Positions 11,048 to 23,965 of a stretch of 64,000 nucleotides of DNA are shown in pieces; within the stretch, counting starts at the first letter, position 1; every line of letters starts with the position of its first letter. The stretch is taken from positions 1 through 64,000 of IMG/VR virus record IMGVR_UViG_3300050123_000043, one strand, 5' to 3'. A program made the position numbers and the translations under genes. The notes beneath the pieces are model-generated. The model saw only the letters and a list, made by a program, of their open reading frames with translations, had not been told where the DNA came from and made no database searches. The stretch comes from a virus (lineage: Duplodnaviria > Caudoviricetes).

Positions 11048-11056
11048 ATCAATTAT

Positions 11057-11272: not shown

Positions 11273-11437
11273 TTATGTACGAAGATTTATTAAAGGACCC
11301 TCCCGACACTGAGGAGGACATTCCAGACATTCTTCAACCCCCAGGCCCCGGAGTTCCGGTAGCCGGTCTGTGCTTTGCTGAAAGATTATAACAAAACTCA
11401 GTGATAATTATCATTGGATTTTGTGATAAAAATAAAA

Positions 11438-11459
11438 TTATAACAAAATTTTGTTATAA
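11438..11459. promoter_or_regulatory. 22-bp palindromic operator-like site TTATAACAAAATTTTGTTATAA
   Basis: Perfect palindrome; copies or variants at 11386, 19348, 20304, 20344, 26063, 26085, 40783, 42231, 42302, 56364, 56427. Confidence 0.8.
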
Positions 11460-11461
11460 AA

Positions 11462-11493
11462 TTTGGTAGATTAAAAAATTCTTCTTAGGTTTG
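11462..11493 (+). promoter_or_regulatory. Bacteroidota sigma-A promoter upstream of tRNA block 1
   Basis: TTTG-N20-TAGGTTTG. Confidence 0.75.
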
Positions 11494-11511
11494 TAGTCTA
11501 AATGATTTTTT

Positions 11512-11637
11512 ATGGTAGTAGGTATAATAATTGGTTTCGTTGCTGGCTTTGTATTGGCATTTGGAATCTTTCATAATAACAAAGCTAAAGCTGATGCGCT
11601 TGTTACAACCGTAGAAGCTGAAGCAAAAAAAGTTTAA
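11512..11637 (+). CDS. Small single-TM protein (41 aa)
   Basis: MVVGIIIGFVAGFVLAFGIFHNNKAKADALVTTVEAEAKKV. Confidence 0.55.
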   Translation: MVVGIIIGFVAGFVLAFGIFHNNKAKADALVTTVEAEAKKV

Positions 11638-11668
11638 TCAAATGGGTGGAGACGCTTAAAATATTACA

Positions 11669-11764
11669 ATGCAACAATTTACAATGATAGTGGATAATAG
11701 AATTAATGCCGGAGGCAACGAGAAATCTGCCCCAGGGAATCTATTATTTGACACTAGAGGATAA
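11669..11764 (+). CDS. Attenuator leader peptide 1 (MQQFTMIVDNRINAGGNEKSAPGNLLFDTRG)
   Basis: Codons 6-19 encode only block-1 amino acids; overlaps the antiterminator arm. Confidence 0.75.
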   Translation: MQQFTMIVDNRINAGGNEKSAPGNLLFDTRG

Positions 11765-11783
11765 AAGTACATCAAATAATTTG

Positions 11784-11820
11784 AAACCCTGGGGCCAGAA
11801 AGCTCCGGGGTTTTTTGTTT
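11784..11820 (+). terminator. Attenuator terminator 1
   Basis: AAACCCTGGGGC-CAGAAA-GCTCCGGGGTTT plus U-tract; 5' arm also pairs with GCCCCAGGG at 11729-11737. Confidence 0.85.
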
Positions 11821-11825
11821 TATAT

Positions 11826-11898
11826 ACCCTTGTAGCAAACTGGCCGTAGGCAAGAGACTTTTAATCTCTGGGGTTTGGTTCGATTCCAAACGGGGGTA
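11826..11898 (+). tRNA. tRNA-Lys(TTT)
   Basis: Cloverleaf; AGAGA-CTTTTAA-TCTCT. Confidence 0.9.
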
Positions 11899-11925
11899 CT
11901 TTTTCAGTTTATAAGCTTAAAATCC

Positions 11926-11996
11926 TCCTCTGAAGCATTAAAGTGATGCTCCAGACTCTTAATCTGGAGAACTTGGATCGGTACCAGGCAGGGGAA
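11926..11996 (+). tRNA. tRNA-Lys(CTT)
   Basis: CCAGA-CTCTTAA-TCTGG; atypical T-loop ATCGGTA. Confidence 0.85.
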
Positions 11997-12041
11997 CAAA
12001 TGATAAAGATGCGGAGATTAAACCGGTTATTCTCCGCAAAC

Positions 12042-12113
12042 ACATCCTTAGCTCATCGGTAGAGTGGGGCTTTTACACGGCTTAGGTAGAGGGTTCAATT
12101 CCTTCAGGATGTA
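12042..12113 (+). tRNA. tRNA-Val(TAC)
   Basis: Acceptor ACATCCT/AGGATGT; loop TTTACAC; G-U-rich anticodon stem. Confidence 0.8.
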
Positions 12114-12169
12114 CATAATGACCGTCATAACGAACATTTTTAGGCGACAATGTTCGTTATAACAAACAT

Positions 12170-12240
12170 TTTCTCTTCGTTTAATGGAAGGACGACTCGC
12201 TTCTAACGAGTAGGCGGGGTTTCGACTACCTCAGAGAAAA
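12170..12240 (+). tRNA. tRNA-Arg(TCT)
   Basis: ACTCG-CTTCTAA-CGAGT. Confidence 0.85.
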
Positions 12241-12245
12241 CTTAA

Positions 12246-12316
12246 GGCTTGTTAGCTCAACGGCAGAGCGTCCGGTTGTTAACCGGTTGATAATTGTTCG
12301 ATTCAATTACTGGCCT
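12246..12316 (+). tRNA. tRNA-Asn(GTT)
   Basis: CCGG-TTGTTAA-CCGG. Confidence 0.85.
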
Positions 12317-12326
12317 CAAAAATTTA

Positions 12327-12358
12327 TTTGGATTTGACACATATTTATCCTATTTTTG
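12327..12358 (+). promoter_or_regulatory. Internal sigma-A promoter for the nuclease gene
   Basis: TTTG-N20-TATTTTTG. Confidence 0.7.
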
Positions 12359-12364
12359 TGTCAA

Positions 12365-13171
12365 ATGAAACTAAAATTCACAGAAGAAGGGCATTCGTAT
12401 GAGTCAATTCCAGCCGTTTCCTGGACTTCTGTGACTAAACTAGTAGAAAGCTACTGCAATCCTTTTGACGAGAAGGATCAAGCTCTGAGGAGTTCACAGA
12501 ATACGAAATCAAAGTGGTTTGGAATGGACCCAGTGGAGATTATCAAACTCTGGAAGGCTGAAAACCTTCGTTCCACTGATGCCGGAACCTGGGTCCACAA
12601 CAAATGGGAAAAAAATGTTAGCTCTTTAAAGCACAAAGAGTGGGAAGGGAAGAAATTAAAAGTTTTTCCTGGAAAATGGGAAGGAGAAACTAAAATTGCA
12701 CCAGCCCAGGAACTTGAAGAAGGGGTTTACTCTGAACATATTATATATAATGAAAATCTTCAGGTGTGTGGACAGGCTGATATTGTTAATGTTAGGGATG
12801 GTTTTGTAGATATTATTGATTATAAGACTAGTAAGGAGATTGAGGACCACTCTTATGGATTCAAGTATGGAAATGCGAGTATGATGTTGGAACCGGTGAA
12901 CCATTTAGAGGATTGCAACCTTTCTCATTATGTTCTTCAGCTTGGTATCTATATGAGGCTCATCCTGTTAAAGAATCCGGCTCTGAAACCTGGTAAACTG
13001 ATCCTCATTCATGTAAAAATGGATATTAATGAGCTTGATCAATATGGATTTCCTATCCTAAAAAGGACAAAAGAAAACGGATATAAAATTAAAAGAACAA
13101 AAAATTATAATATAAAATACATTGAGAATGAAGTTCGTAGTGTATTAAAAGATCATTATTTAAAATTGTAG
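12365..13171 (+). CDS. PD-(D/E)XK (Cas4/RecB-like) exonuclease
   Basis: SVT, GTWVH, CGQADIV, IIDYKT and YxLQLxxY motifs. Confidence 0.85.
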   Translation: MKLKFTEEGHSYESIPAVSWTSVTKLVESYCNPFDEKDQALRSSQNTKSKWFGMDPVEIIKLWKAENLRSTDAGTWVHNKWEKNVSSLKHKEWEGKKLKVFPGKWEGETKIAPAQELEEGVYSEHIIYNENLQVCGQADIVNVRDGFVDIIDYKTSKEIEDHSYGFKYGNASMMLEPVNHLEDCNLSHYVLQLGIYMRLILLKNPALKPGKLILIHVKMDINELDQYGFPILKRTKENGYKIKRTKNYNIKYIENEVRSVLKDHYLKL

Positions 13172-13316
13172 GGTGGCGAAATTGGTAGACGCAACCGCTT
13201 GTCTCGCGGTCGTGGATAAGGAAATAGATAGTAGATAGACGGTTGACCAGCAATGAATTAACTTCTTTTGTCTACTGTTGAATCCCCACTTAATGGTTCG
13301 ACTCCATTTTCTACAG
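13167..13316 (+). ncRNA. tRNA-like RNA (GTC anticodon) with an ~80-nt structured variable-arm insertion
   Basis: Acceptor TGTAGGG/TTCTACA, class-II-type D arm, ACCGC-TTGTCTC-GCGGT, T arm AATGG-TTCGACT-CCATT. Confidence 0.75.
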
Positions 13317-13322
13317 CTATAT

Positions 13323-13396
13323 TGCGGGATAGAGAAGTGGTCTATCTCAAGGGTCTCATAAGCCCTACATCGTCAGTTCGAATCTGGCTCCCGCAA
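13323..13396 (+). tRNA. tRNA-Met(CAT), initiator-like acceptor
   Basis: TGCGGGA/TCCCGCA; AGGGT-CTCATAA-GCCCT. Confidence 0.85.
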
Positions 13397-13401
13397 CTTT
13401 T

Positions 13402-13472
13402 GCGCCATACGCATTCCGGTAGTGTGCCTGGCTTCCAACCAGGATGAGTCGGTTCGATTCCGACATGACGCA
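13402..13472 (+). tRNA. tRNA-Gly(TCC)
   Basis: CCTGG-CTTCCAA-CCAGG. Confidence 0.85.
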
Positions 13473-13476
13473 CTAA

Positions 13477-13548
13477 GGGAGAAATGCGAGTTCGATTCTC
13501 GCTCTGTCGGCTTCGGCTGACGGATAGTCCAGTGGCTAAGACGCTCCC
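13477..13548 (+). ncRNA. Circularly permuted tRNA-like RNA (acceptor closed by UUCG, no anticodon loop)
   Basis: Order: GGGAG, T arm, TCTGTCGGC-TTCG-GCTGACGGA, D arm, CTCCC. Confidence 0.8.
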
Positions 13549-13555
13549 GTTTTTT

Positions 13556-13626
13556 GACGGGTTCTTATATTGGTAGTAATCTTGGCCTTCACCCAGGAAA
13601 AGACAGTTCGATTCTGTCACTCGTTA
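13556..13626 (+). tRNA. tRNA-Glu(TTC)
   Basis: CTTGG-CCTTCAC-CCAGG (C33). Confidence 0.8.
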
Positions 13627-13632
13627 CACTTT

Positions 13633-13707
13633 CGGAGATCGGTCCGGCCAGGAACGGATGTCGCCTTGTCACGGCGAAGACCGTGGGTTCAAATCCCACA
13701 TTTCCGG
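13633..13707 (+). tRNA. tRNA-Asp(GTC)
   Basis: TCGCC-TTGTCAC-GGCGA; G73. Confidence 0.85.
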
Positions 13708-13833
13708 CAATCCAACTCTCACGCCATAATTTTATGGCGCACCAGGAGAATGAATGAAGTACGACATAGGCCCCCGTAGGTCATTCACGGTGTTTTTAAC
13801 AATTTCACAAGGTTACGAAAAATTGTTTTCTAT

Positions 13834-13911
13834 ATTGGGATAATTCAGTCTGGTCAGAATGCCTGGCTTATATCCAGGTAGTCATTGGTTCAAATCCAAT
13901 TCCCAATACCA
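13834..13911 (+). tRNA. tRNA-Ile(TAT) with encoded CCA
   Basis: CCTGG-CTTATAT-CCAGG; ATTGGGA/TCCCAAT-ACCA. Confidence 0.85.
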
Positions 13912-13979
13912 GTTCGTACAAAGGCACGAATTATTAAAAGATTCGTGCAAATACACAATTTGCAAATTGCGAATTGCAC

Positions 13980-14053
13980 TGACCTATGGCGCAGTTTGGT
14001 AGCGCAGCACTCTGATAAGGTGAAGGTCCCTGGTTCAAATCCAGGTGGGTCAA
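13980..14053 (+). tRNA. tRNA-Ile(GAT)
   Basis: Loop CTGATAA; canonical D and T arms. Confidence 0.9.
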
Positions 14054-14114
14054 CTCTGTTCATATTTTTTCTCTGTTCACGGAAACGCGAACACAGAGAA
14101 AATGTGAACAACCT

Positions 14115-14188
14115 GGGGCCGCATGTTCCGTAGTGGCGAGTCTCACTTGCAATGAGACTGTGATAGGGTGCAACTCCCTTGGGTTCCA
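14115..14188 (+). tRNA. tRNA-Ala(TGC), atypical D and T arms
   Basis: TCTCA-CTTGCAA-TGAGA; G3:U70 present. Confidence 0.75.
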
Positions 14189-14263
14189 CTTATTTTTTTC
14201 CCAAATTTGGAAATGTGAAAAATTTTCGCTATATTGAAATCTTCACATCCAAATTTAAATAAT

Positions 14264-14755
14264 ATGTTAAAGTCCCTCCTAGACAATCCAGAGAAGACCT
14301 TTTTTGGCAAGCTTAGAAACATTGGTTTTGTATTTGCACTGGAATTAATTTACTTAAGTATCATTATTTTTTTATTAAAACAGTTCGATCCTTTTGATTT
14401 AGATAATTTTATACATTCATATAGTTTGCCACATGTAATAGACGCTAATGCTATCGGAATGGTTTTCTTTGCTTGCGTTTGGGCACCCATCTGGGAAGAA
14501 GCGGCTTTCAGGTATGCTCCTATTACGATTGCCAAGAACTTTGGACCCCAATATTTGCTCCCGGTTATAATTATTAGCAGCGTTTTATTTGGTTGGGGAC
14601 ATGGAGATGGGCCTATTAGCCTTCTTATACAGGGAGTTGGGGGATTCTTGTTTTCCCTTCTTTATATCAAAAACGGGTTTAGCTATAAATCTTCAGTAGC
14701 TGCCCACTTCCTTTGGAACGCCTTTCTCATGCTTGCGCTTCCAGTAATAGTTTAA
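14264..14755 (+). CDS. CPBP (CAAX/Abi) family intramembrane metalloprotease
   Basis: APIWEEAAFR, FGWGH and AAHFLWN motifs. Confidence 0.85.
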   Translation: MLKSLLDNPEKTFFGKLRNIGFVFALELIYLSIIIFLLKQFDPFDLDNFIHSYSLPHVIDANAIGMVFFACVWAPIWEEAAFRYAPITIAKNFGPQYLLPVIIISSVLFGWGHGDGPISLLIQGVGGFLFSLLYIKNGFSYKSSVAAHFLWNAFLMLALPVIV

Positions 14756-14811
14756 AATTTATTTTGTAATATCAATTCTTTTAAGTACTTTAGGGTCATA
14801 ATTTAGTTATT

Positions 14812-15588
14812 ATGGCCCTAATTGCTATGGCGGTATATTCCACTGAGGAGAACGGAAAAAATGAATATCTGGATAGAACTCTTCAATCATTAGAAGAGAC
14901 TGTAGATTTTACAAAACATCGTTTAATTCTATCTGTTAATGCTTACACAGCAGAAACTCTTTTGATTTTCAGGAAATTTAAAGGAATGTTTACTCTTATT
15001 TTTAATGATTATAATTTAGGAACCGCTGAAGCAATTAATCTTGCCTGGAAAGATCAATGGCCGAATGAGAATCTTATCAAGATGGACGATGATGTGATTT
15101 TTCACGCTAATGGATGGGTTGATCGCATGGAAGAAGCGATTCAGAGAGATCCAACGATAGGTCAATGTGGTCTAAAAAGAAGAGATTGTACAGAAACCCC
15201 CTGGAACCCCGATCCCTTTTATAAATCAAAACTTGAAATGCTTCCTCACTCTCCCGGTGAAAAGTGGATTGTGGTAGAAGAAGTATCCCACGTTATGGGG
15301 ACTTGCGTTATGCATTCCTCCGCACTACTTGACAAAGTAGGATACCTTTATCAACCAAAACTTTATGGCTTTGATGATTCGTTCATGAGTCTTCGGTCCC
15401 GGATCGCGGGATTTAGGAATGTATTTTTGCCTGGTATAGATATTGAACATATTGATAGAGGAGATACTGGGTTCCAAAAATGGAAAGAGAAACATGCTGG
15501 AGAGTGTTGGCAAGAATATATGCAAGTGGTAAGAGATTATACATCAGGTAAAAAAAGTGTTTATTATAATCCATTCGAAAATGAATGA
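14812..15588 (+). CDS. Glycosyltransferase family 2
   Basis: NLGTAEAIN, KMDDD and YGFDD motifs (GT-A fold). Confidence 0.85.
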   Translation: MALIAMAVYSTEENGKNEYLDRTLQSLEETVDFTKHRLILSVNAYTAETLLIFRKFKGMFTLIFNDYNLGTAEAINLAWKDQWPNENLIKMDDDVIFHANGWVDRMEEAIQRDPTIGQCGLKRRDCTETPWNPDPFYKSKLEMLPHSPGEKWIVVEEVSHVMGTCVMHSSALLDKVGYLYQPKLYGFDDSFMSLRSRIAGFRNVFLPGIDIEHIDRGDTGFQKWKEKHAGECWQEYMQVVRDYTSGKKSVYYNPFENE

Positions 15589-16267
15589 TACAATAGTTCT
15601 TACTGCGATATATCATGAGTTTTGGGGAACGCATCACTTTAGAAAATCTGTTGAGAGGGTTGGTCTTGATGTCTATAATGTATTTCCTCCAGATGTTCCA
15701 TTTAAAGGAAATGGTTTTATTTATCAATACTTTTACAAAGCTTTTTTAGATCTTAAAGATAAATACAAAACAGTTATTTATTCGGATGGAGCAGATACAG
15801 TTTTTCAAAAAGCATTTGTACCACCAACCGATAGAATAATTTATTCTGTTGAAAAAGCAATATGGCCTCCTCTTCCGCATCTTAAAGATCTTTATGAAAA
15901 TTATTATAATAAACCTTGGCGTAGAAATGATTGGCCCTGGAAATATTTGAATGGTGGAAATTGGTGTGGTCCTGTTGATCTTCTAATTGAATTCTATGAA
16001 AGATACGGATTGAAAGATTTGACTGGAGATATAAATGGTCAGAAGGAACAAGCTGAAGCATTTATGAAAGCAGATGAAAATTTATTTCCTATTACCTTTG
16101 ATCTTCGTTGTGAATATTTTCAAACAACAGGTTTTGAAAACGTAGGGGATTTTAGTTTAGCAGAAGACAGAAAATCAATTATAAATAACTTAACAGGCAC
16201 CACCCCATGTGTCTTACACGGTAACGGTCGAACCGATATGGGTCCTATTTATGAACGCTGGAAATAA
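15581..16267 (+). CDS. PLOD/procollagen-glycosyltransferase-like GT domain protein
   Basis: YSDGADT, SVEKAIWP, YLNGG and HGNG motifs. Confidence 0.7.
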   Translation: MNDTIVLTAIYHEFWGTHHFRKSVERVGLDVYNVFPPDVPFKGNGFIYQYFYKAFLDLKDKYKTVIYSDGADTVFQKAFVPPTDRIIYSVEKAIWPPLPHLKDLYENYYNKPWRRNDWPWKYLNGGNWCGPVDLLIEFYERYGLKDLTGDINGQKEQAEAFMKADENLFPITFDLRCEYFQTTGFENVGDFSLAEDRKSIINNLTGTTPCVLHGNGRTDMGPIYERWK

Positions 16268-16931
16268 ACCAAACATTGTTATCATCGGTGGTGGTAATCA
16301 TGCTCAGTATTGTATTGACATTATTGAAAGAGAAGGCAAGTACAATATCATAGGGATTATTGATTCAATCAAAAACCTTGGAGATGATGTATTCGGATAT
16401 AAGGTTATTGGAAAACAAGAACACGTAAATTCTCTTTCAGATACTTATGGTTTTACGGCAGGTATAATTACAGTAGGAGATAACTGGGCAAGATATAAAA
16501 TATATTCAGATATTATTGAAACTTATCCCTCATTTACATTTGTAAACGCAATTCATCCTTCAGTAATAATAGGCAATAATGTAAAGATAGGTAAAGGAGT
16601 AATAGCAATGGCGGGTGTAATATTTAATCCTGGAGCAAATATTGGAGATTTTACTTTCTTTGCAACAGGTGCTCAAGTGGAACATGATTGTTATATTGGA
16701 GATTTCGCAAGTATATCCGCAGGATCTGTTCTTGGTGGTCATGTTCATATAGGAGACTTTGCTGCTATTACTCTAGGAGTAACAATAGTTGATCGCGTTA
16801 CCATTGGAAAAAATACAGTAATTGGATCAGGATCTCTTGTAACAAAAGATATACCAGACAATGTTTTGGCTTATGGAAGTCCTGCGAAAATAATAAGAAC
16901 AAGAGAACCAGGCGAAAGATTTTTAAAATAA
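16251..16931 (+). CDS. NeuD/PglD-family sugar acetyltransferase
   Basis: IIGGGNHA, hexapeptide repeats, VEHDC, GSPAK. Confidence 0.9.
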   Translation: MNAGNKPNIVIIGGGNHAQYCIDIIEREGKYNIIGIIDSIKNLGDDVFGYKVIGKQEHVNSLSDTYGFTAGIITVGDNWARYKIYSDIIETYPSFTFVNAIHPSVIIGNNVKIGKGVIAMAGVIFNPGANIGDFTFFATGAQVEHDCYIGDFASISAGSVLGGHVHIGDFAAITLGVTIVDRVTIGKNTVIGSGSLVTKDIPDNVLAYGSPAKIIRTREPGERFLK

Positions 16932-16935
16932 TAAC

Positions 16936-17727
16936 ATGTCACCATCCCACGCAATAGAATTAAACCATAGAGGTTATACTATTATACCAAATTTGATACC
17001 GCCTATTATTGTTGATGGATTGAGATATGCGTTGAACTTTTCATTTGATAAACACAGACAGATACAAATTGATAATAATAATGATATAGTTACGGAAGGC
17101 GTTGCTCTACATGTTTTATTAGATAATAGAAGATTTATTGAATTCTTACAATATCTTATGTTTGATATTAAGTTGTATTCCTTTCTGGAAGAAAATTATT
17201 TTAAATCAAAATTCATATTGAATTCGATGAGTGGCTTGAATAACTTACCAAACCAACCAAACTTTTCGTCCATAGTTCACCGTGATTTGAGATTTTATAC
17301 TGGCGAAATACCAGTCATGATAAATGCCCTTGTGATGGTTGACGAATTCACTGAAGATAATGGTCCCACCTTGTTATTACCATATTCTCATATTGATTTC
17401 GAAGAAAAACCAACCAATGAATACTTTCGAAGAAGTTCAGTGAAAGCTCTCGGTGAAGCCGGTAGTGTTTTATTATTTAATGCAAACGTTTGGCACGCAT
17501 CTAGCTTAAATACTTCTCGTAACGGAAGAAGAGCATTACCAATAACATTCACTAAATCACTTATAAAGCAGTTATTGGATTATCCCAGGGCTTTAGGATA
17601 CGATAGAATGGAAAGCTTTAGCGAACCAATGCAACAGCTTCTTGGGTATCATGCCCGTGTACCAGCCAACTTAGATGAATGGTATCAACCTTTTGATAAA
17701 CGATTTTATAAAAAAAACCAAGATTAA
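16936..17727 (+). CDS. Phytanoyl-CoA dioxygenase-family 2OG-Fe(II) oxygenase
   Basis: HRD, FTEDNGPT..PYSH, WH..S.N and RRA motifs. Confidence 0.85.
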   Translation: MSPSHAIELNHRGYTIIPNLIPPIIVDGLRYALNFSFDKHRQIQIDNNNDIVTEGVALHVLLDNRRFIEFLQYLMFDIKLYSFLEENYFKSKFILNSMSGLNNLPNQPNFSSIVHRDLRFYTGEIPVMINALVMVDEFTEDNGPTLLLPYSHIDFEEKPTNEYFRRSSVKALGEAGSVLLFNANVWHASSLNTSRNGRRALPITFTKSLIKQLLDYPRALGYDRMESFSEPMQQLLGYHARVPANLDEWYQPFDKRFYKKNQD

Positions 17728-17737
17728 AATAAACCAT

Positions 17738-17983
17738 ATGCCAATATTAATTTCTCGAAAACAGAATATAGTTCGATCATATACTTTTGAACTTAATCCA
17801 ATAGAAACTCAAAAATTTGAAGATGAGATTTTGAGTAATTTTTGGGATGCAACCAAAATTCCTGAAGACGAAAGAGCAGAGTTCAAAGTAACGTATACTA
17901 TAGATTTTTATAAAAAACCAGTAGAAGAAGAACCCCAACCCCAGGATGGGTCACATATTATACTAGGATTACCTTCTATCTAA
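17738..17983 (+). CDS. Hypothetical protein
   Basis: Start trimmed to MPILIS. Confidence 0.5.
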   Translation: MPILISRKQNIVRSYTFELNPIETQKFEDEILSNFWDATKIPEDERAEFKVTYTIDFYKKPVEEEPQPQDGSHIILGLPSI

Positions 17984-17985
17984 TA

Positions 17986-18017
17986 TTTGGTAATTTCAAT
18001 TATTTTACATATATTTG
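17986..18017 (+). promoter_or_regulatory. Sigma-A promoter of tRNA block 2
   Basis: TTTG-N20-TATATTTG. Confidence 0.8.
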
Positions 18018-18021
18018 TTTT

Positions 18022-18090
18022 ATGAAACATATCAATTCATATTATTCACTGAGTCTACTCTTATCGTCTTACGATACGGACCTGGGATAA
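18022..18090 (+). CDS. Attenuator leader peptide 2 (MKHINSYYSLSLLLSSYDTDLG)
   Basis: 12 consecutive Ser/Tyr/Leu codons upstream of the Leu/Ser/Tyr tRNAs. Confidence 0.8.
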   Translation: MKHINSYYSLSLLLSSYDTDLG

Positions 18091-18125
18091 TATTGAATTA
18101 ACCGAACTGATTCGGAAAAGTTATT

Positions 18126-18159
18126 ACCCTGGGATTTTTATCCTGGGGTTTTTTGTTTT
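18126..18159 (+). terminator. Attenuator terminator 2
   Basis: ACCCTGGGAT-TTTT-ATCCTGGGGT plus U-tract. Confidence 0.85.
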
Positions 18160-18233
18160 AGGGATGTGCTGCAATTGGTAGATAGCTACGCCTCAAAAGC
18201 GCATGTGTGTGGGTTCGAATCCCTCCTTCCCTA
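18160..18233 (+). tRNA. tRNA-Leu(CAA), short variable arm
   Basis: Loop CTCAAAA. Confidence 0.8.
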
Positions 18234-18262
18234 CTAAAAGCGTTACTAACGCTTTTCAGTAT

Positions 18263-18342
18263 ACCTTCGTGACTTATACGAAATGGCACAGTTACCGGTC
18301 TTAGAAACCGGGTCCTTGTGGGTTCGACTCCCACCGAAGGTA
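18263..18342 (+). tRNA. tRNA-Leu(TAG), short variable arm
   Basis: CCGGT-CTTAGAA-ACCGG. Confidence 0.85.
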
Positions 18343-18379
18343 CAATGTTTCCCTTATTAATGAGGTAAACAATTTATAA

Positions 18380-18459
18380 CCCTCTGTGGCTTATAGAAAT
18401 AGGTACACTTAACCGACTTAAAATCGGAGCTTGTCATGGTTCGAATCCATGCAGGGGGA
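18380..18459 (+). tRNA. tRNA-Leu(TAA), short variable arm
   Basis: CCGA-CTTAAAA-TCGG. Confidence 0.8.
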
Positions 18460-18464
18460 CATAC

Positions 18465-18551
18465 GGAAGGCCCCAGTTGACTGAGGTACACGGTCCTGAA
18501 CACCGCTAGGAGGCTAATACCCTTGTAAGAGTTGGACTCTCTTGCTTTCCG
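18465..18551 (+). tRNA. tRNA-Ser(TGA)
   Basis: GGAAGGC/GCTTTCC-G; loop CCTGAAC; long variable arm. Confidence 0.75.
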
Positions 18552-18669
18552 CTTTATATCTTTTAACATATAAAATCAGTAATATATTACCGATTATATC
18601 TAATAACGTATAATAAGGTAGAATATTTTGCAACAATCGGCAATTTATTACCGATTTTGCCGAAAGTTT

Positions 18670-18753
18670 GGAAAGTTAATTAGCAAGAGCTAACCCTCCC
18701 CGCTAAGGAGTGGGACCGGGAAACTGGTTGTGGTTCGTGTCCACAACTTTCCG
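18670..18753 (+). tRNA. tRNA-Ser(GCT)
   Basis: GGAAAGT/ACTTTCC-G; loop CCGCTAA; long variable arm. Confidence 0.8.
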
Positions 18754-18765
18754 CAAGAGGAAACA

Positions 18766-18797
18766 TTTGGAAGTTTCCTCTTTATTTCGTATGTTTG
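18766..18797 (+). promoter_or_regulatory. Internal sigma-A promoter for the HNH gene
   Basis: TTTG-N20-TATGTTTG. Confidence 0.7.
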
Positions 18798-18801
18798 TAA
18801 A

Positions 18802-19248
18802 ATGAAAAAGATATGTTCAAAATGCAATATTGAAAAAGAAGTACAAGATTTCAATAAACGCACAAACAGTAAAGACGGATATGATCCAAGATGTAGAACT
18901 TGTACAAAAGAACGAGATGTTTTAAGATATACTAAAAATCCCAAACTTTTTAAAGAAAGGGCAAAAGTTAAAAACACTTTTATAAGAGATAGAAACAGAC
19001 AATTTTTAATTGAATATTTAATTGATAAATCATGTATTGATTGTGGAGAAACCGATGCTGTTGTATTGGAGTTCGATCATATAGAACCTTCAACAAAAAT
19101 TGATTGTATTTCAGAAATGATTCCACGATCAAGTATTGAAAATATTAAAACTGAATTAAATAAATGTGAAATAAGATGTGCAAATTGTCATAGAAGAAAA
19201 ACAGCTAAACAATTTGGCTGGAAAAGAAAACACCTGGAATTATGTTAA
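18802..19248 (+). CDS. HNH endonuclease with N-terminal Zn-finger
   Basis: CSKC/CRTC; CIDCG..LEFDH..CANCH. Confidence 0.85.
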   Translation: MKKICSKCNIEKEVQDFNKRTNSKDGYDPRCRTCTKERDVLRYTKNPKLFKERAKVKNTFIRDRNRQFLIEYLIDKSCIDCGETDAVVLEFDHIEPSTKIDCISEMIPRSSIENIKTELNKCEIRCANCHRRKTAKQFGWKRKHLELC

Positions 19249-19272
19249 GATTAGATAAAACTTTACTCTTAT

Positions 19273-19343
19273 TGATTGAATACCAGGGCAGTAGGCACTG
19301 TCTGTAAAACAGAGGCACGTAGGTTCGAGTCCTACTCAGTCAA
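19273..19343 (+). tRNA. tRNA-Tyr(GTA), short variable arm
   Basis: CTGT-CTGTAAA-ACAG; TGATTGA/TCAGTCA. Confidence 0.8.
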
Positions 19344-19370
19344 CAAATTATAACTGAATTTTGTTATAAA

Positions 19371-19402
19371 TTTGGAAATTTGAAAAAGTATTATTAAGTT
19401 TG
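19371..19402 (+). promoter_or_regulatory. Sigma-A promoter of tRNA block 3
   Basis: TTTG-N20-TAAGTTTG, abutting a 22-bp palindrome variant at 19348-19369. Confidence 0.8.
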
Positions 19403-19413
19403 CAGTTAAGATT

Positions 19414-19506
19414 ATGAAACAGACTATCAACACGCGATTTTTTTGGCATCAACCGACCCCTCAAGGTCCAAGGGCTAAAGTTATGCGTGATACAGATATA
19501 GGTTAA
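19414..19506 (+). CDS. Attenuator leader peptide 3 (MKQTINTRFFWHQPTPQGPRAKVMRDTDIG)
   Basis: 11 consecutive Thr/Arg(CGA)/Phe/Trp/His/Gln/Pro codons upstream of those tRNAs. Confidence 0.8.
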   Translation: MKQTINTRFFWHQPTPQGPRAKVMRDTDIG

Positions 19507-19534
19507 ATAATCTCTTTTCTGCTTGCAACTTTTC

Positions 19535-19570
19535 AACCCTTGATTTTTCTAAACCGAGGGTTTTTTATTT
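19535..19570 (+). terminator. Attenuator terminator 3
   Basis: AACCCTTGATTT-TTCT-AAACCGAGGGTT plus U-tract. Confidence 0.8.
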
Positions 19571-19646
19571 CTAGTAATGGAGGAGTCCGGCCATCCTCGC
19601 GTGCCCTGGAAGCATGAGAACCCAGGTTCAAATCCTGGTTACTAGA
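19571..19646 (+). tRNA. tRNA-Pro(TGG)
   Basis: CGTGC-CCTGGAA-GCATG; C1:G72, A73. Confidence 0.85.
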
Positions 19647-19651
19647 CAAAT

Positions 19652-19723
19652 TCCTCTTAAGCTTTAATGGTGAAGCTCCAGTTTTGTAAACTGGTGAATG
19701 GGGATCGTTACCTCAAAGAGGAT
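19652..19723 (+). tRNA. tRNA-Thr(TGT)
   Basis: CCAGT-TTTGTAA-ACTGG. Confidence 0.85.
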
Positions 19724-19807
19724 CGAAGCCGGTTACCAAAATGTAAAAAAGCCGCCAGAACGTGTCTGGTTACTTGTTAAGACAAGTTGTAAAAAAGTTT
19801 GGGTTAT

Positions 19808-19882
19808 GTGTCTTGGGCAGGTCTGGTGACATTGCATCCGTTTGAAGAACGGACTAACAAGGTTCGATTCCTTGAGGATACG
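19808..19882 (+). tRNA. tRNA-Phe(GAA)
   Basis: TCCGT-TTGAAGA-ACGGA (G37). Confidence 0.8.
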
Positions 19883-19887
19883 CTTAT

Positions 19888-19959
19888 TCCTGGATCGTAT
19901 AACGTGTAGTACAGCCGTCTCTGACACGGTTAGCAATTGTTCGACTCAGTTTCCGGGAA
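19888..19959 (+). tRNA. tRNA-Gln(CTG)
   Basis: GCCGT-CTCTGAC-ACGGT. Confidence 0.85.
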
Positions 19960-19964
19960 CTTAA

Positions 19965-20035
19965 ACCCCTTTAGCATAAAGGTAATGCTGGTGGCCTTGA
20001 CCCACCAGAAGTTCGGTCGGTACGAGCAGGGGGTT
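19965..20035 (+). tRNA. tRNA-Gln(TTG)
   Basis: GGTGG-CCTTGAC-CCACC. Confidence 0.8.
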
Positions 20036-20037
20036 CT

Positions 20038-20107
20038 GTGAATCTAGTTCAATGGTAGAACGGCTGGCTGTGAACCAGGCAATTAGGGTTCGATCCCCGG
20101 TTTCACA
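20038..20107 (+). tRNA. tRNA-His(GTG)
   Basis: CTGG-CTGTGAA-CCAG; lacks the G-1:C73 pair. Confidence 0.8.
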
Positions 20108-20153
20108 CAACGCATGAATTTTTAATAAAAATTCATGCAAAATATTAACATAA

Positions 20154-20225
20154 CCTCCTTTCGTTCAACGAATAGGACCTCTGGCAACGAACCAGAAAAT
20201 AAAGGTTTGATTCCTTTAGGGAGGT
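20154..20225 (+). tRNA. tRNA-Arg(ACG)
   Basis: TCTGG-CAACGAA-CCAGA (A33). Confidence 0.8.
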
Positions 20226-20230
20226 CAATT

Positions 20231-20299
20231 ACGTGCCAGGCTAAGGCAGCCAAGCAAACTCCAAATCTGTAGGAGATAGTTCGATTCTATCGGTGCGTG
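20231..20299 (+). tRNA. tRNA-Trp(CCA)
   Basis: Loop CTCCAAA; ACGTGCC/GGTGCGT-G. Confidence 0.8.
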
Positions 20300-20791
20300 C
20301 AAATTATAACAAAAAGCAATTATAATTACTTTTTGTGATAATATTCACACAAAATTTTGTGATAAATGTTGGAAGTGTCAAAAGTATTGTTTTACTTTGC
20401 ACCCAACTTTCACCAGTAAAGGACACGCCACCACGAAAAAACAATGATATGAAGTGGCGCAACTACGTCCTGCCAATCTATGGCCCCAGTTTGGGAGGGG
20501 GGCCGGGGGGAGGGCCTCAACCCTTCATATTATTGATTTATAATACGTTAAATGATTACTGGTTAAATAGTTGGCCTGGTAAAGCTTATAAATTTGGTTA
20601 TGTGCTTTGAATTACATATATTTACAGAGGTAAAAAGCACAAAAAATATAAAAAGAGATTCAAGGAATCAATTTAAGATATTACCATCAAAAAAACACCT
20701 ATCTGGTTATAATCAAAAAACGTAATCTGCGTCCATTTAAAACGTTTAAGCAGATGGCGGTGAATTAGGTGACACCGTTTCCCGGTGGTAT

Positions 20792-20820
20792 AAAAGATGC
20801 AATTTATTGCATCTTTTTTT
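20792..20820 (+). terminator. Intrinsic terminator
   Basis: AAAAGATGCAAT-TT-ATTGCATCTTTT plus T-tract. Confidence 0.7.
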
Positions 20821-20874
20821 ATTTAACATAGTCTTAACTTGGTTTTATAATAAAAAACTGTTACATTTGCAAGT

Positions 20875-21222
20875 ATGAGAGCGTTGAAGATAGAAAAAAA
20901 GACTGATTCGAAAACTCAACAGATAAAGCTTGTATTATCAATCATTTGTCTATTAAACAATATTAATCTCTCAGAAACAGACTATATAGTTCTTGCTTTT
21001 TTTATTCAATATAAAATGAGTCACAAAACCGATGATTTGATAATAAAGAGTGGGGTTGTAAAGAACTTGGATGTTTTAAGGAATGTTAAAACCAGGTTAT
21101 GTAAGAAGGGATTTTTAAAAAGAGATCTTAAAGAATACAAAACCTATGATTTAAACATGAGTGCGGGGGAGTTCAATTGGGAAGACAATGATATTCGATT
21201 AATTATAAAACTCAATAATTGA
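20875..21222 (+). CDS. Hypothetical protein, possible winged-helix DNA-binding protein
   Basis: LSETDYIVLAF..NVKTRLCKKGFL pattern; promoter-like TTG-N20-TACATTTG upstream. Confidence 0.5.
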   Translation: MRALKIEKKTDSKTQQIKLVLSIICLLNNINLSETDYIVLAFFIQYKMSHKTDDLIIKSGVVKNLDVLRNVKTRLCKKGFLKRDLKEYKTYDLNMSAGEFNWEDNDIRLIIKLNN

Positions 21223-21572
21223 AAAATATTGACTATATAATTTTGAAGACCTCCAGGGACATGGATATTCCTAAAGAAAAGGTTAAGGTAATAGTGGATG
21301 CCTATTGGGACGGAGTGTATAAAAAACTTTTAAATTTAGATTCTACAACTGTTTTTATAAGGAATGTGGGGCTGATAACAATAAGTAAATTTAAATTAAG
21401 AAAGTTTATTTATAAATTTATTGATAAAATAAGATTTTTAAATAAAGGAGATAATTATTCTGAACAACAAAAACAAAAACTCAATCCTCTTTATATTAAA
21501 AAATTGAGGAAGGCTCTTTTTCAAAGAAATATTATTGCTAAAGACTACGCTAAAAAATTTGGAAACACATGA
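21219..21572 (+). CDS. HU/IHF-like DNA-binding protein
   Basis: Helix-helix followed by VFIRNVGLI (HU-type VxIxxFGxF); TTG start. Confidence 0.55.
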   Translation: MKNIDYIILKTSRDMDIPKEKVKVIVDAYWDGVYKKLLNLDSTTVFIRNVGLITISKFKLRKFIYKFIDKIRFLNKGDNYSEQQKQKLNPLYIKKLRKALFQRNIIAKDYAKKFGNT

Positions 21573-21961
21573 GTTTAAGAAAAACTTTTGGTGAGTATTT
21601 GGAAATGGTGAAGAATGGTTTTAAAAACAAAGATAAGATCATTGAAGCAATGCAGGTTTCTGCTATGATAAAGAATGGTCTGGTAATTGGGGATGGATTG
21701 GAAGTTACTAATGAGGCTATTGCTGAGATACTTAAAAGGATAGATATTTGTGCTGAGTGTCCTTTCAATAGTAGACATGCAAAGAAAGGATCTTACACAT
21801 CCACTTTACCTTTTGAACATTGTACTCTTTGTAAATGCAGGATAGGATATGACGATAGCAAGGAATATTGTTTGAGTTGTAATTGTGGAGCCGAAGCCTG
21901 GAATGAAATGAATCCTGATATGGAACCGATGGAAGTGAAATGGACTGCATTTAAAAATTAA
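21569..21961 (+). CDS. Cys-rich Zn-binding protein
   Basis: RIDICAECP..CTLCKC..CLSCNC. Confidence 0.65.
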   Translation: MSLRKTFGEYLEMVKNGFKNKDKIIEAMQVSAMIKNGLVIGDGLEVTNEAIAEILKRIDICAECPFNSRHAKKGSYTSTLPFEHCTLCKCRIGYDDSKEYCLSCNCGAEAWNEMNPDMEPMEVKWTAFKN

Positions 21962-21972
21962 AAATAAATATT

Positions 21973-22308
21973 ATGTGCGTAGTTAGTATGATAGGAGATC
22001 ACTACTCCGATAAATTTAGGGATGATTGGTATAAAAGGTTTATTCCTTGGACCCCTCCTATTCCAAATAATCCTTATCCCTGGAGTGGAAATTCTACTAC
22101 AACATCTGTTCCTTCGGCAACAAAAGAAGAGTTTGATGCTTTAAAGAAAGAAGTTGAAGAAATGAAAAAACTTTTAATTAGAGCAAAGATATATGATGAA
22201 AAAAACAATGAACCAGATTGCGAAATAGACGCTAAGATAGAACTTCTTAAAAAGTTTGCAGAGATAGTTGGAATAGATTTAAGTGACATTTTTAAAAAAA
22301 TAACATGA
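21973..22308 (+). CDS. Conserved hypothetical phage protein
   Basis: MCVVSMIGDHY..AKIYD..EPDCE pattern. Confidence 0.65.
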   Translation: MCVVSMIGDHYSDKFRDDWYKRFIPWTPPIPNNPYPWSGNSTTTSVPSATKEEFDALKKEVEEMKKLLIRAKIYDEKNNEPDCEIDAKIELLKKFAEIVGIDLSDIFKKIT

Positions 22309-22790
22309 AAAAAAGCACAAAGATTATTTTATTTGTATTATTCCTTGTAAGTCTCATTTCTTTTAGTATCTTTGTATCAGCACAGCAACAAAATCCAATA
22401 AAGAAATTTCATCCAGCAACGTATGAAGCTGATAGTGTTATTTATGTTCGTGATGATCAAACTATTACTATAACCGATAGTATTAATGTAGTTTTTACAG
22501 ATACTGCAAACTTAGTAAGATTTGTTAATATAACTAAAAAACAAACTCTTAGTATTGAAGTAATACAACAGGCGGGATCAAAAACACTTGAACAATATAA
22601 TGAGAAAGGAGAAAAAGAAAATTTAACTGTAGTTTGGTTTTATTGTTTAGTAAATGGCGAACATCAAGAAGTGTTTACAATGTTGTCTCTTCCAGATGGT
22701 GAAGTTGCAGCGGTTGGTATAGGTACTCAAAGTTACTTTACAGTTATATCATTAAAAAGAAAGAAACAATACGATAAAAAACTTAAATAG
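22305..22790 (+). CDS. Exported hypothetical protein
   Basis: Signal peptide ending VSA-Q. Confidence 0.6.
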   Translation: MKKSTKIILFVLFLVSLISFSIFVSAQQQNPIKKFHPATYEADSVIYVRDDQTITITDSINVVFTDTANLVRFVNITKKQTLSIEVIQQAGSKTLEQYNEKGEKENLTVVWFYCLVNGEHQEVFTMLSLPDGEVAAVGIGTQSYFTVISLKRKKQYDKKLK

Positions 22791-22795
22791 AAATT

Positions 22796-23065
22796 ATGAC
22801 CACAGAAAGAACGCTTCCGGGTAAGCCCGATAAGCAAAGAATGCAGACCACACAGCAGATTTTTCATAATCTTCTGGAGATAGTGGAACTTTATCCTCAG
22901 TTTTCTGTGGCCCAACATGTGGCTGCGATAAGTCGGAGAAAAAGTTCAAATGGTAAAGAATTGTATTTTTGGTCTGATGATGAACTTCTTAAAAAGATTG
23001 AAGCTCACAAGACAGAACTCGAAGGAGAAGACATTATGAATTATGATGATGGTGAAATTGATTAA
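22796..23065 (+). CDS. Hypothetical protein
   Basis: ORF in run. Confidence 0.6.
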   Translation: MTTERTLPGKPDKQRMQTTQQIFHNLLEIVELYPQFSVAQHVAAISRRKSSNGKELYFWSDDELLKKIEAHKTELEGEDIMNYDDGEID

Positions 23066-23073
23066 CATATTTT

Positions 23074-23430
23074 ATGACCATAAAGAAAACGTTTTATATA
23101 GACATTTATAGTTGTAATGTGCATGTAACGGCGGCTGATGATGTAAGACGATCAATAAATTATTATTTAAAAAAACACGGAGAAAAAATCATAGATTATG
23201 ATGTAGAAGGACTTTTTTTCGTTCCTATAGATCAAGTCTCTGATTATTATTTATTTTTTAATCTTAAAGGCTTAGATGTAAATACTTTGAATCATGAAAT
23301 ATCTCATCTTATTGAAGAAATTTTAATACATCGTCATATTAAAGCATCAGGAGAACAGAGAGCATACTTACACGGATCTACATGTGAAAGAATATATAAT
23401 TTCTTTAAAAAGAAAAAATGTATTAAATAA
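23074..23430 (+). CDS. Small HExxH metallopeptidase-like phage protein
   Basis: HEISH and EQRAYL motifs. Confidence 0.6.
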   Translation: MTIKKTFYIDIYSCNVHVTAADDVRRSINYYLKKHGEKIIDYDVEGLFFVPIDQVSDYYLFFNLKGLDVNTLNHEISHLIEEILIHRHIKASGEQRAYLHGSTCERIYNFFKKKKCIK

Positions 23431-23431
23431 C

Positions 23432-23507
23432 GGCCAGGTACCCAATGCTGGACGCGGGGTTAGTCTGCAAAACTTACTTAACACCAGTTCGATTCTGGTT
23501 CTGGTCT
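23432..23507 (+). tRNA. tRNA-Cys(GCA), stand-alone
   Basis: GGCCAGG/TCTGGTC-T (U73); loop CTGCAAA. Confidence 0.8.
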
Positions 23508-23519
23508 CAAAAAAATAAT

Positions 23520-23963
23520 ATGCCAGCAAAGAAAAAAACAAATTTTGTATCTTACGAACTTGCTCGTCTTGATAAATATCTAAAACAACTTACTTCTTAT
23601 CTTGATGCTCATCCTCCCGATAAAATGGAGGATAGAATAGAATGGATTGAAACCCCAAGAGGTGGAGAAATTCCAAAAGTTATTTCCTCAATAGAAACAC
23701 AACTCAAAGTGTTTATGTCTACGCTGGAAAAGCTTCCAAAACTTTTATCAGATGTTAATGCTCTTCGTAAAGAAGTAGAGGGAGGAACAAAAGAAGTTGA
23801 ATTAAGAGGAGGAGCCGAACGCCCAGGGTTTATGGATAATGATGAACAAACAGGAGACGATTTTGAAGATATTCCAAACGATAAAACCCTTCCCCCTTCC
23901 ACTACAGAAGAAATTAAGGACCCGGAGTTTGATGATGAAAATTACTGGCAGGAGGATGATTAA
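23520..23963 (+). CDS. Hypothetical protein upstream of terL (possible terminase small subunit)
   Basis: Start MPAKKK after tRNA-Cys; position; RGG motif and acidic tail. Confidence 0.45.
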   Translation: MPAKKKTNFVSYELARLDKYLKQLTSYLDAHPPDKMEDRIEWIETPRGGEIPKVISSIETQLKVFMSTLEKLPKLLSDVNALRKEVEGGTKEVELRGGAERPGFMDNDEQTGDDFEDIPNDKTLPPSTTEEIKDPEFDDENYWQEDD

Positions 23964-23965
23964 TT

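Follow-up and report, generated by a model that had tools for sequence, protein, structure and literature searches.

The closest described counterparts of the element reported here are the multivalent attenuators of enterobacteria, among which the thr leader carries Thr and Ile codons and the ilvGMEDA leader carries Leu, Val and Ile codons. Our study concerns positions 17986-18159, on the plus strand, of a 64-kb window of phage DNA (positions 1 to 64,000 of the IMG/VR record IMGVR_UViG_3300050123_000043, the whole stretch analyzed), which lie directly 5' of a gene for tRNA-Leu(CAA). We judge it likely that this segment is a ribosome-mediated (leader-peptide) transcription attenuator in the style of trp, which would gauge decoding and gate a set of Leu, Ser and Tyr tRNA genes. 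Its likeness to the thr and ilv leaders lies in a short, apparently translated leader that names several amino acids, in predicted alternative helices (1:2, 2:3 and 3:4), in a predicted terminator placed before the first gene, and in a stall that would lead to read-through. A preliminary description of the window had proposed a leader-peptide attenuator whose Ser, Leu and Tyr codons match the tRNAs downstream; five relatives, the covariation of leaders with the tRNA blocks that they precede, and the helices of the unit all lend support to that proposal.

To our knowledge, the regulation of phage tRNA genes is largely uncharted, and why phages carry tRNAs at all is debated, with codon compensation set against a need to make good the tRNAs that host shut-off or defence removes. 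If our reading is true, the phage measures the speed of decoding codon by codon and supplies tRNAs on demand. Attenuation of the textbook kind would then be extended to a new class of target genes, with autogenous feedback, and a sequence rule, that the leader lists the tRNAs behind it, could be used to locate the boundaries of tRNA operons and to find odd tRNA genes missed by programs. Two phages in culture, Cellulophaga phage phi17:2 and Leptolyngbya phage Lbo-JY46, have units of this build, and the idea is thus directly testable at the bench.

Anatomy of the unit before the Leu/Ser/Tyr block

The unit extends from a promoter-like motif to a U-run. The motif, TTTG-N20-TATATTTG (17986-18017), resembles the -33/-7 elements of Bacteroidota promoters. 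Its TATATTTG part occupies 18010-18017 and is followed after 4 bases by the leader ATG, in agreement with the earlier remark that the start codon falls just after the -7 element. The leader open reading frame (ORF), MKHINSYYSLSLLLSSYDTDLG, appears in the list of ORFs at 18022-18090, has homologues in five relatives, and comprises 22 codons and a stop: ATG AAA CAT ATC AAT TCA TAT TAT TCA CTG AGT CTA CTC TTA TCG TCT TAC GAT ACG GAC CTG GGA TAA. Codons 6-17 (18037-18072), which are exactly those quoted in the preliminary description, form a putative sensor run of 12 consecutive Ser, Leu and Tyr codons, ten of them different. This is the joint longest Ser/Leu/Tyr run among the 195,652 six-frame codon positions of the whole genome; its only equal, also of 12, lies antisense to a low-complexity acidic region, and no further run exceeds 9 codons. 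Four of the codons used (CTA, CTC, CTG and TCG) are rare, each making up 3-8% of the codons for its amino acid.

The RNA of the unit can be divided into four regions. RNAduplex identifies region 1 (CAATTCATATTATTCA, 18033-18048) as a partner of region 2 (18080-18100), which spans the stop codon and can pair instead with region 3 (18121-18136). Region 3, read from the hairpin scan and from folding, is at once the 5' arm of the predicted terminator and the 3' strand of the predicted antiterminator. Folding also gives region 4 (18139-18150), the 3' arm of the terminator, and a spacer hairpin, CCGAA-CTGA-TTCGG (18102-18115), within the antiterminator loop; the U-run TTTTTGTTTT (18150-18159) ends one base before tRNA-Leu(CAA). 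The helices 1:2, 2:3 and 3:4 are mutually exclusive. Helix 1:2 (18033-18048 with 18084-18100, -10.8 kcal/mol by RNAduplex), which the preliminary description did not mention and which was found here, is also present in the minimum free energy fold. Helix 2:3 (18080-18093 with 18121-18134, -11.2 kcal/mol) bears out the pairing proposed earlier between CCTGGGATAATA (18081-18092) and TATTACCCTGGG (18122-18133), in which 11 of 12 positions pair, two of them as G-U, with one mismatch and the same duplex energy. Helix 3:4 (18125-18136 with 18139-18150, -15.4 kcal/mol) runs into the U-run, and the terminator scan reports it as a hairpin at 18126-18149 with a T-run and a 10-pair stem containing five G-C pairs, among 16 such sites against 9.7 +/- 3.0 in shuffled sequence. 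Its last part belongs to a 16-mer, GGGGTTTTTTGTTTTA, that is identical at 11807 and 18145 and has no other exact copy. When folded without translation, the RNA takes up 1:2 and 3:4; the RNA beyond a ribosome stalled in the middle of the run is predicted to form 2:3 before the 3' arm is made, and the RNA beyond a ribosome at the stop codon to form 3:4.

An untranslated leader RNA might achieve the same switch if its row of codons paired with tRNA anticodons in the manner of a multi-specifier T-box. The complementarity of the leader codons to the anticodons encoded downstream would fit such a scheme, which we nevertheless hold to be very improbable. Single triplets pair weakly where neither a ribosome nor a T-box scaffold holds them, a scan of 10000-25000 with cmscan (Rfam, E <= 1) gave no match to a T-box, nor to any other leader family at 18022-18159, and no T-box-like element for binding the tRNA acceptor end is evident. 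The ATG, the in-frame stop, the conserved length of the ORF and the synonymous changes among relatives described below all point to translation. We attribute to chance a weak L10_leader match at 11691-11826, which has 27.3 bits where the gathering score is 44 (E 0.48).

Sister units and leader composition in related phages

Twenty-one terminases, drawn from the best 120 of 183 proteins related to the large terminase (TerL) of the phage, were aligned and the alignment was used to scan viral and metagenome contigs; Lbo-JY46 (PP438436.1, our locus L022) and phi17:2 (NC_021798.1, our L023) were added from GenBank. TerL as a single query against viral contigs, and the TerL alignment against genome contigs, gave no match. 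Six loci have tRNA arrays upstream of the terminase: L005 (64% TerL identity to the window), L001 (56%, on the same contig as L006), L009 (67%), L015 (43%), L003 (38%) and Lbo-JY46.

The window itself holds two sister units, both on the plus strand. Unit 1 (11669-11825), with the leader MQQFTMIVDNRINAGGNEKSAPGNLLFDTRG and a terminator at 11783-11814, stands before genes for Lys, Lys, Val, Arg(TCT), Asn and others through to Ala. Unit 3 (19371-19570) has a promoter-like motif, the leader MKQTINTRFFWHQPTPQGPRAKVMRDTDIG (19414-19506) and a terminator at 19535-19562, and precedes Pro, Thr, Phe, Gln, Gln, His, Arg(ACG) and Trp. Nowhere else in the genome does a run of the unit 3 amino acids reach the 11 residues found in its leader, and both this run and the Ser/Leu/Tyr run lie upstream of their matching blocks by no more than 140 nt. 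A comparison with contigs of four DNA runs revealed strain differences: in three other DNA runs, 98 other letters take the place of 11716-12048, from the middle of leader 1 through both tRNA-Lys genes, which makes the 3' half of leader 1 and the first tRNAs variable between strains.

Including the relatives, there are 20 units of this build in eight phages, and every one has a hairpin followed by a U-run, a predicted intrinsic terminator. The 18 units of seven phages (the window and the six loci) have an ATG-started ORF of 21-36 codons, a G+C-rich hairpin of -10.5 to -21.8 kcal/mol with its U-run, and a first tRNA that begins 57-69 nt beyond the stop codon; in the two units of phi17:2, at L023 16394->16264 and 15434->15290 on the minus strand, this distance is 62 and 61 nt. 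In the window and the six loci at most 3 nt (0-3) lie between the end of the U-run and the first tRNA of the block, which leaves no room for a promoter, so that these tRNAs could be made by read-through only. A leader with a Ser/Leu/Tyr run stands before a Leu/Ser/Tyr block in five relatives, namely L005 (MTNINSYYSLSLSLLSANGETM), L001 (MKRLSSYYLSLSLYAASGDSMFIS), L009 (MIMNTFTSYYSLSLSLLRAQGFTMVG), L015 (MKQFNTYLLSLSSLSLGIGGDVYLC) and Lbo-JY46 (MKNFNTYYSLSLSLSQPTQELYLCAY). Together with that of the window these six leaders keep SYYSLSL-like runs, and their codon changes are synonymous or stay within Ser, Leu and Tyr: between the window and L005 the first seven codons of the run differ at four bases, all synonymous, and the next four codons exchange Ser and Leu only. 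Short ORFs are plentiful in such AT-rich DNA (234 of at least 20 amino acids in 15 kb), and a chance ORF beside an ordinary terminator of the upstream gene (17675-17983) was considered. We reject it: the ORF contains the joint longest run in the genome, it is conserved down to 41% TerL identity, and the same build recurs at all 20 places.

The pairing potential is conserved as well. In all 18 units the terminator 5' arm pairs best with a G-rich segment towards the 3' end of the ORF, which in the window unit spans the stop codon and which starts 8-48 nt upstream of the stop codon across the set (z -1.7 to -6.3). No more than 5 of 200 shuffles match this pairing in 12 of the 18 units, and 6-14 do so in the others; for unit 1 of the window (GCCCCAGGG/CCCTGGGGC) the figures are z -6.2 and 0 of 200, and in unit A of phi17:2 the pairing is matched by 3 of 200. 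The sequence of the terminator arm varies between units and its partner varies with it, as in GCCCCAGGG/CCCTGGGGC, GAGAGGG/CCCTCTC and CAGGAGC/GCCTCC. RNAalifold recovers the protecting 1:2 helix and the terminator in the consensus of the six Leu/Ser/Tyr leaders, with compensatory changes at 6 of 19 pairs in what is a rough alignment.

Composition of the leaders was compared with the content of the blocks, which was compiled from ARAGORN at default and relaxed settings, 87 Rfam tRNA matches in the six loci, and anticodon loops read by hand for genes with odd T-loops. In the genomes with at least two units, each of the 17 leaders has its longest run for the amino acids of the block that it precedes, at 7-14 residues, while runs for the other blocks have 0-7. 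Among 11 informative tests on the loci tested, no longer run than that of the leader exists in 9, ties included; the run of phi17:2 unit A is third of 83,842 positions and that of L003 second, and the test on phi17:2 unit B, with its set of 14 amino acids, is uninformative.

As read from the sequences, leader composition follows tRNA content where genes have moved, namely for Thr, Asn, Gly, Cys and Asp and in the repartition of phi17:2. L015 has a fourth block of Cys, Asn, Thr and Gly behind a leader of its own, MQSRSINTTNNTCGGYNNVGSRVCCIC (run NTTNNTCGG). In the same genome Asn and Gly are missing from the run of leader 1, DRMEDVIIADEKR, and Thr from that of leader 3, HRPFQWFQPF, although the other five leaders of the latter type include Thr in the run. 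Block 1 of Lbo-JY46 includes two tRNA-Cys genes and its leader 1 has seven Cys codons; leader 1 of the window has none, and the sole tRNA-Cys gene of that genome stands apart without a leader. In L003, Asp is grouped with Pro, Phe and Gln and the leader contains FQDQPD. In phi17:2, block A (Pro, Glu, Gln, His, Leu, Leu, Arg(ACG)) is found behind MKIQRLHLQELEQPIISGGTGV, a leader that includes QRLHLQELEQP, and block B (Ala, Lys, Ile, Gly, Met, Asp, Thr, Val, Arg(TCT), Met, Tyr, Ser, Ser, Asn, Trp, Phe) behind ...TKTGITVIDKTKGARAY... Being independent events, these relocations carry the most weight. The match reaches the isoacceptor in the case of Arg: codons for Arg within the run are CGN in seven of seven leaders whose block has Arg(ACG), CGN being 35% of the Arg codons of the phage, and AGA in five of seven cases with Arg(TCT) in the block.

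These observations bear on two further explanations. The hairpin and U-run might be a constitutive leaky terminator, or an element for processing or stabilizing the tRNA precursor, beside a small ORF with no sensing role. Structures at the 5' end of tRNA precursors are frequent, the tail of the hairpin is identical at two blocks, as would suit a generic signal, and the 2:3 helix of the window unit is weak when taken alone; we still regard a constitutive element as quite unlikely, since it leaves unexplained the match of leader to block in 17 of 17 cases, the tracking of relocated genes, the complementary segment in the ORF of 18 of 18 units and the conserved 1:2 helix. Alternatively, the same attenuator might respond to amino-acid supply, that is to Ser, Leu or Tyr starvation, with the output of tRNA merely following host nutrition. 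Stalling at hungry codons stems from lack of charged tRNA whatever the cause, and the architecture cannot separate the two signals. Extra tRNA does not relieve starvation, however, which would make this a circuit without benefit, and both the Arg codons matched to the Arg isoacceptor of the block and the leaders that follow relocated tRNA genes indicate tRNA species rather than amino acids; a signal from amino-acid supply thus seems improbable to us, if less so than a constitutive element.

The leader peptides have similar ends (FDTRG, YDTDLG, RDTDIG and YDTDAC, and GDTVIG in phi17:2), seen at window positions 11750-11764, 18073-18090 and 19489-19506, at L005 1383-1400 and at L023 15371->15351. 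This likeness may reflect common descent of the cassettes, or a role for the nascent C-terminus or for GAYACN at the stop codon. In phi17:2 the block B leader ORF corresponds to gp077, whose annotation begins at a TTG farther upstream, and gp078, which we considered as a third leader, was rejected on account of its overlap with an unannotated tRNA-Ser(TGA) gene (L023 13428-13529 and 15351-15470, minus strand, for the gp078/gp077 region). A tRNA-Lys(TTT) gene at 15134-15062 of phi17:2 is likewise unannotated.

tRNA genes, promoter-like motifs and genome setting

The tRNA genes behind the leader, all on the plus strand, were recognized with differing ease. tRNA-Leu(CAA) (18160-18234, 75 nt) is called by ARAGORN and scores 37.7 bits with Rfam. 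tRNA-Leu(TAG) (18263-18345), with a large D-loop and a short variable arm, is found by relaxed ARAGORN only (as 18272-18343), and its anticodon loop CTTAGAA aligns with Leu(TAG) of the relatives. tRNA-Leu(TAA) (18380-18460) was identified by homology through the loop CTTAAAA, conserved across five relatives; relaxed ARAGORN misfolds it as Ser(CGA). A divergent Ser(TGA)-like gene (18468-18554, with C33 and the T-loop TTGGA) was placed by homology alignment, and neither ARAGORN at -ps80 nor Rfam at E <= 1 calls it. tRNA-Ser(GCT) (18670-18754) is called by relaxed ARAGORN, and tRNA-Tyr(GTA) (19273-19344, 72 nt, without a long variable arm) by ARAGORN, with 27.4 bits against an Rfam gathering score of 29. 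Between these two lies an inserted cassette (18755-19248), recognized by scan and by its match to phrog_2255, which consists of a terminator-like hairpin (18755-18782), a promoter-like motif of its own ending in TATGTTTG, and a gene for an HNH endonuclease (18802-19248; E 2.2e-37) whose ATG is 4 nt past TATGTTTG. The cassette is absent at the same place in L005, L001 and L015, where Ser(GCT) or Ser(TGA) adjoins Tyr. The Leu3-Ser2-Tyr block of the preliminary description thus stands in part: Leu(CAA) and Tyr(GTA) are called by default ARAGORN and by Rfam, Leu(TAG) and Ser(GCT) appear at relaxed thresholds only and Leu(TAA) by homology, the second Ser gene is a Ser(TGA)-like copy that no program finds, and Tyr is parted from the block by the HNH gene.

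Leu and Tyr tRNAs normally belong to class II and have a long variable arm. Those of the window are short (18160-18234, 75 nt; 18263-18345, about 80 nt with an enlarged D-loop; 19273-19344, 72 nt), and tRNA-Tyr measures 83-86 nt in L005, L001 and L015. A non-canonical T-loop marks several tRNA genes in the relatives (Ile-GAT, Phe, Asp, His and Gln), GGCAGTACC or GGCAGAACC and not GGTTCGAATCC, at L001 2010-2081 and 4102-4174, L015 1660-1730 and 3651-3724, L005 6641-6718 and L009 1836-2020. ARAGORN missed all of them; Rfam found those of L001 and L015, and those of L005 and L009 were read by hand. At 13167-13317 of the window, just 5' of tRNA-Met, where the preliminary description had noted a tRNA-like RNA, ARAGORN run with introns calls a 150-nt tRNA-Glu with a 70-nt intron, and over-long calls also occur in L001 (Asn, 88 nt; Met, 93 nt).

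Promoter-like motifs of this kind number 14 in the genome, and six of the eight on the plus strand have an ATG 4-11 nt downstream. A leaderless transcript, as suggested in the preliminary description, is weakly indicated by the 4-nt spacing at the leader and by these similar spacings elsewhere. A scan for sigma-70 promoters was uninformative (49 sites, against 54.9 +/- 7.1 in shuffles). A 23-codon ORF behind the motif at 40809, examined as a further leader, is just the start region of a 450-amino-acid gene. The leader promoters of Lbo-JY46 have the form TTTG-N19-21-TAnnTTTG (L022 1771-1838, 5340-5390 and 6080-6119), a form typical of Bacteroidota, despite the recorded cyanobacterial host of that phage. 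A 22-base palindrome (TTATAACAAAATTTTGTTATAA and variants) occurs in eight copies on the plus strand, where none are expected, at 11438-11459, 19348-19369, 26063-26106, 40783-40804, 42231-42252, 42302-42323 and 56364-56385. It is found just 5' of promoter-like motifs, including those for leader 3 and for a small ORF ahead of leader 1 and excluding that of leader 2, and palindromes of a similar kind precede leader 3 in L005, L009 and L001. It looks like an operator or a phage-specific promoter element, which would add a second layer of control to units 1 and 3.

The window is the first part of a single-contig genome of 97,828 bases with 35.5% G+C, and the stretch is found in DNA runs labelled as peat or permafrost metagenomes; no RNA run is listed for 11400-20400. 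The contig opens (1-100) with tandem repeats of an 18-base unit (CATCCCCGGAAACCCGTG and variants). TerL (gene at 23966-26068; phrog_6681, E 4.7e-53) has its highest tblastn identity with Lbo-JY46 (40.8%), followed by the Cellulophaga phages phi17:2 and phi4:1 (about 29%; 29.5% for phi17:2) and crAss-like gut phages (about 25%; 25.3% for cr55_1); a placement from TerL alone thus makes this a phage distantly related to crAss-like and related Bacteroidota phages. A blastn search of 17000-21000 against 50,697 phage records returned two tRNA-sized matches only. Relaxed detection over the genome gives 26 tRNA genes covering all 20 amino acids, 25 of them inside the three blocks. The remaining one, tRNA-Cys (23432), lies directly 3' of a 118-amino-acid ORF, as in L001, L009 and L007, and was rejected as an attenuated gene since no leader lies upstream.

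Proposed working and relation to known attenuators

The anatomy of the unit, its conservation and the covariation of leaders with tRNA content are observed directly, and from them we infer a working that extends from translation of the leader, through termination and antitermination, to the direction of the response and its physiological signal. Transcription would start at or just before the ATG, and a ribosome would translate the 22-codon leader while RNA polymerase nears the hairpin. Fast decoding of the Ser, Leu and Tyr codons would bring the ribosome to the TAA inside region 2, which it would mask, and the 3:4 hairpin with its U-run would stop transcription one base before tRNA-Leu. If no ribosome is loaded, 1:2 would hold region 2 and the terminator would form too. 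A stall within the Ser/Leu/Tyr run would cover region 1 and permit 2:3 to pair, so that no terminator forms and polymerase reads through into the tRNA genes. The two sister units in the genome would work in the same way, and all would require a host that couples transcription and translation tightly enough.

The products of read-through are tRNAs that read the codons of the leader itself, and the circuit would therefore exert negative feedback on decoding capacity. Candidate signals are too little host tRNA, tRNA cut by the defences of the host, and limitation of amino acids; the likeliest would be a shortage of usable tRNA, whether from mismatch with the host pool, from host shut-off or from defence nucleases. 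We lean towards a broader proposal, held less firmly than the attenuator as such, in which the three leaders gauge the tRNA pool and not amino acids. They would form a modular, self-tuning supplement of tRNA genes for 19 amino acids in three blocks, each block being turned on when its own codons slow and off by its own products. The module would be old and portable, from the phages of peat metagenomes to phi17:2 and Lbo-JY46, with leaders rewritten as tRNA genes move.

Several points weigh against this account. The 2:3 helix of the window unit, taken by itself, is little better than chance (z -1.75; 11 of 200 shuffles are equally good), and it is weaker than the terminator (-11.2 against -15.4 kcal/mol), so that antitermination would have to be kinetic. 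Unit B of phi17:2 lacks an ATG start, and its antiterminator, matched by 39 of 200 shuffles, is no better than shuffled sequence. The codons of the window run are also less telling than the preliminary description had supposed when it saw in them a sampling of individual isoacceptors: their diversity is only mildly unusual (P = 0.028 for at least 10 distinct codons under phage codon usage, taken from 59 long ORFs with 24,256 codons), and chance alone would usually bring all five codon boxes into such a leader (P = 0.72 per leader). TTG is indeed absent from the run, as had been noted, and tRNA-Leu(CAA) does start the block (18160), yet among the six leaders the presence of TTG does not track that of Leu(CAA), since TTG occurs in two of the four leaders with this tRNA and in one of the two without it.

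Further points of the same kind concern the tRNA genes and the sampling. The Ser(TGA)-like gene is possibly decayed. The hairpin, promoter-like motif and HNH gene ahead of tRNA-Tyr may place that gene outside the control of the attenuator, and the HNH insertion has probably uncoupled it from the leader in this phage. Leader 2 of Lbo-JY46 keeps Tyr and AGY codons, yet its block yielded neither a tRNA-Tyr nor a Ser(GCT) gene; Thr, Cys and Ile in the L003 leader have no matching tRNAs, and leader 1 of L005 has Val, Thr and Cys without detected tRNAs. The contents of the blocks were read partly by hand or at relaxed thresholds. Finally, the genomes are related, and the counts of units are therefore not independent events; the relocations alone are.

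Within the literature searched, which did not extend to old scans, subscription journals and supplements, no paper dealt with Lbo-JY46 and none described tRNA genes under the control of a leader peptide. An attenuator-like leader of the E. coli tRNA-Phe genes was considered and rejected, as K-12 pheV and pheU have about 10 nt between promoter-like sequence and tRNA and no leader ORF. The sole regulated accessory tRNA array that we found described is the trn operon of Anabaena sp. PCC 7120, which resembles the phage blocks in being an accessory array, normally silent, whose expression is induced by impaired translation, and differs in its control by a protein repressor, TrcR, acting on direct repeats at the promoter (PMC8421152; PMC10272220). 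The main text of the first of these does not contain the words 'attenuat', 'leader' or 'terminator' (PMC8421152). Phage tRNAs have been presented as a counter to host tRNA depletion or cleavage, in accounts whose abstract openings deal with the function of phage tRNAs and do not mention a leader-peptide gate (PMC10264068; PMC11555353). Such a role would give a phage reason to gauge the tRNA pool.

T-box riboswitches sense the state of tRNA and switch an intrinsic terminator before translation-related genes, as the phage unit would; a T-box, however, binds one uncharged tRNA directly and without a ribosome, whereas the phage unit has an ORF with many codons. In contrast to the thr and ilv leaders, the phage unit controls tRNA genes and not biosynthetic enzymes, its codons name the downstream tRNAs down to the Arg isoacceptor, it has Bacteroidota-type promoter motifs and a near-leaderless ORF, and no similarity to them in sequence or in Rfam was found. 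The trait of the classical members, that genes for biosynthesis enzymes or an aminoacyl-tRNA synthetase lie downstream, is absent, as tRNA genes follow; with these targets and with no Rfam match, the unit cannot be placed in any described leader family. With the trp, his, leu and pheA attenuators (PMC3082878; PMC1183508), it has in common that the position of the ribosome would pick antiterminator or terminator and that rare codons are used (CTA, CTC, CTG and TCG in the window); those systems join one amino acid to an enzyme operon, and the phage unit joins three amino acids to tRNA products. Since these products read the codons of their own leader, the loop would be autogenous, unlike those of trp, his, leu and pheA.

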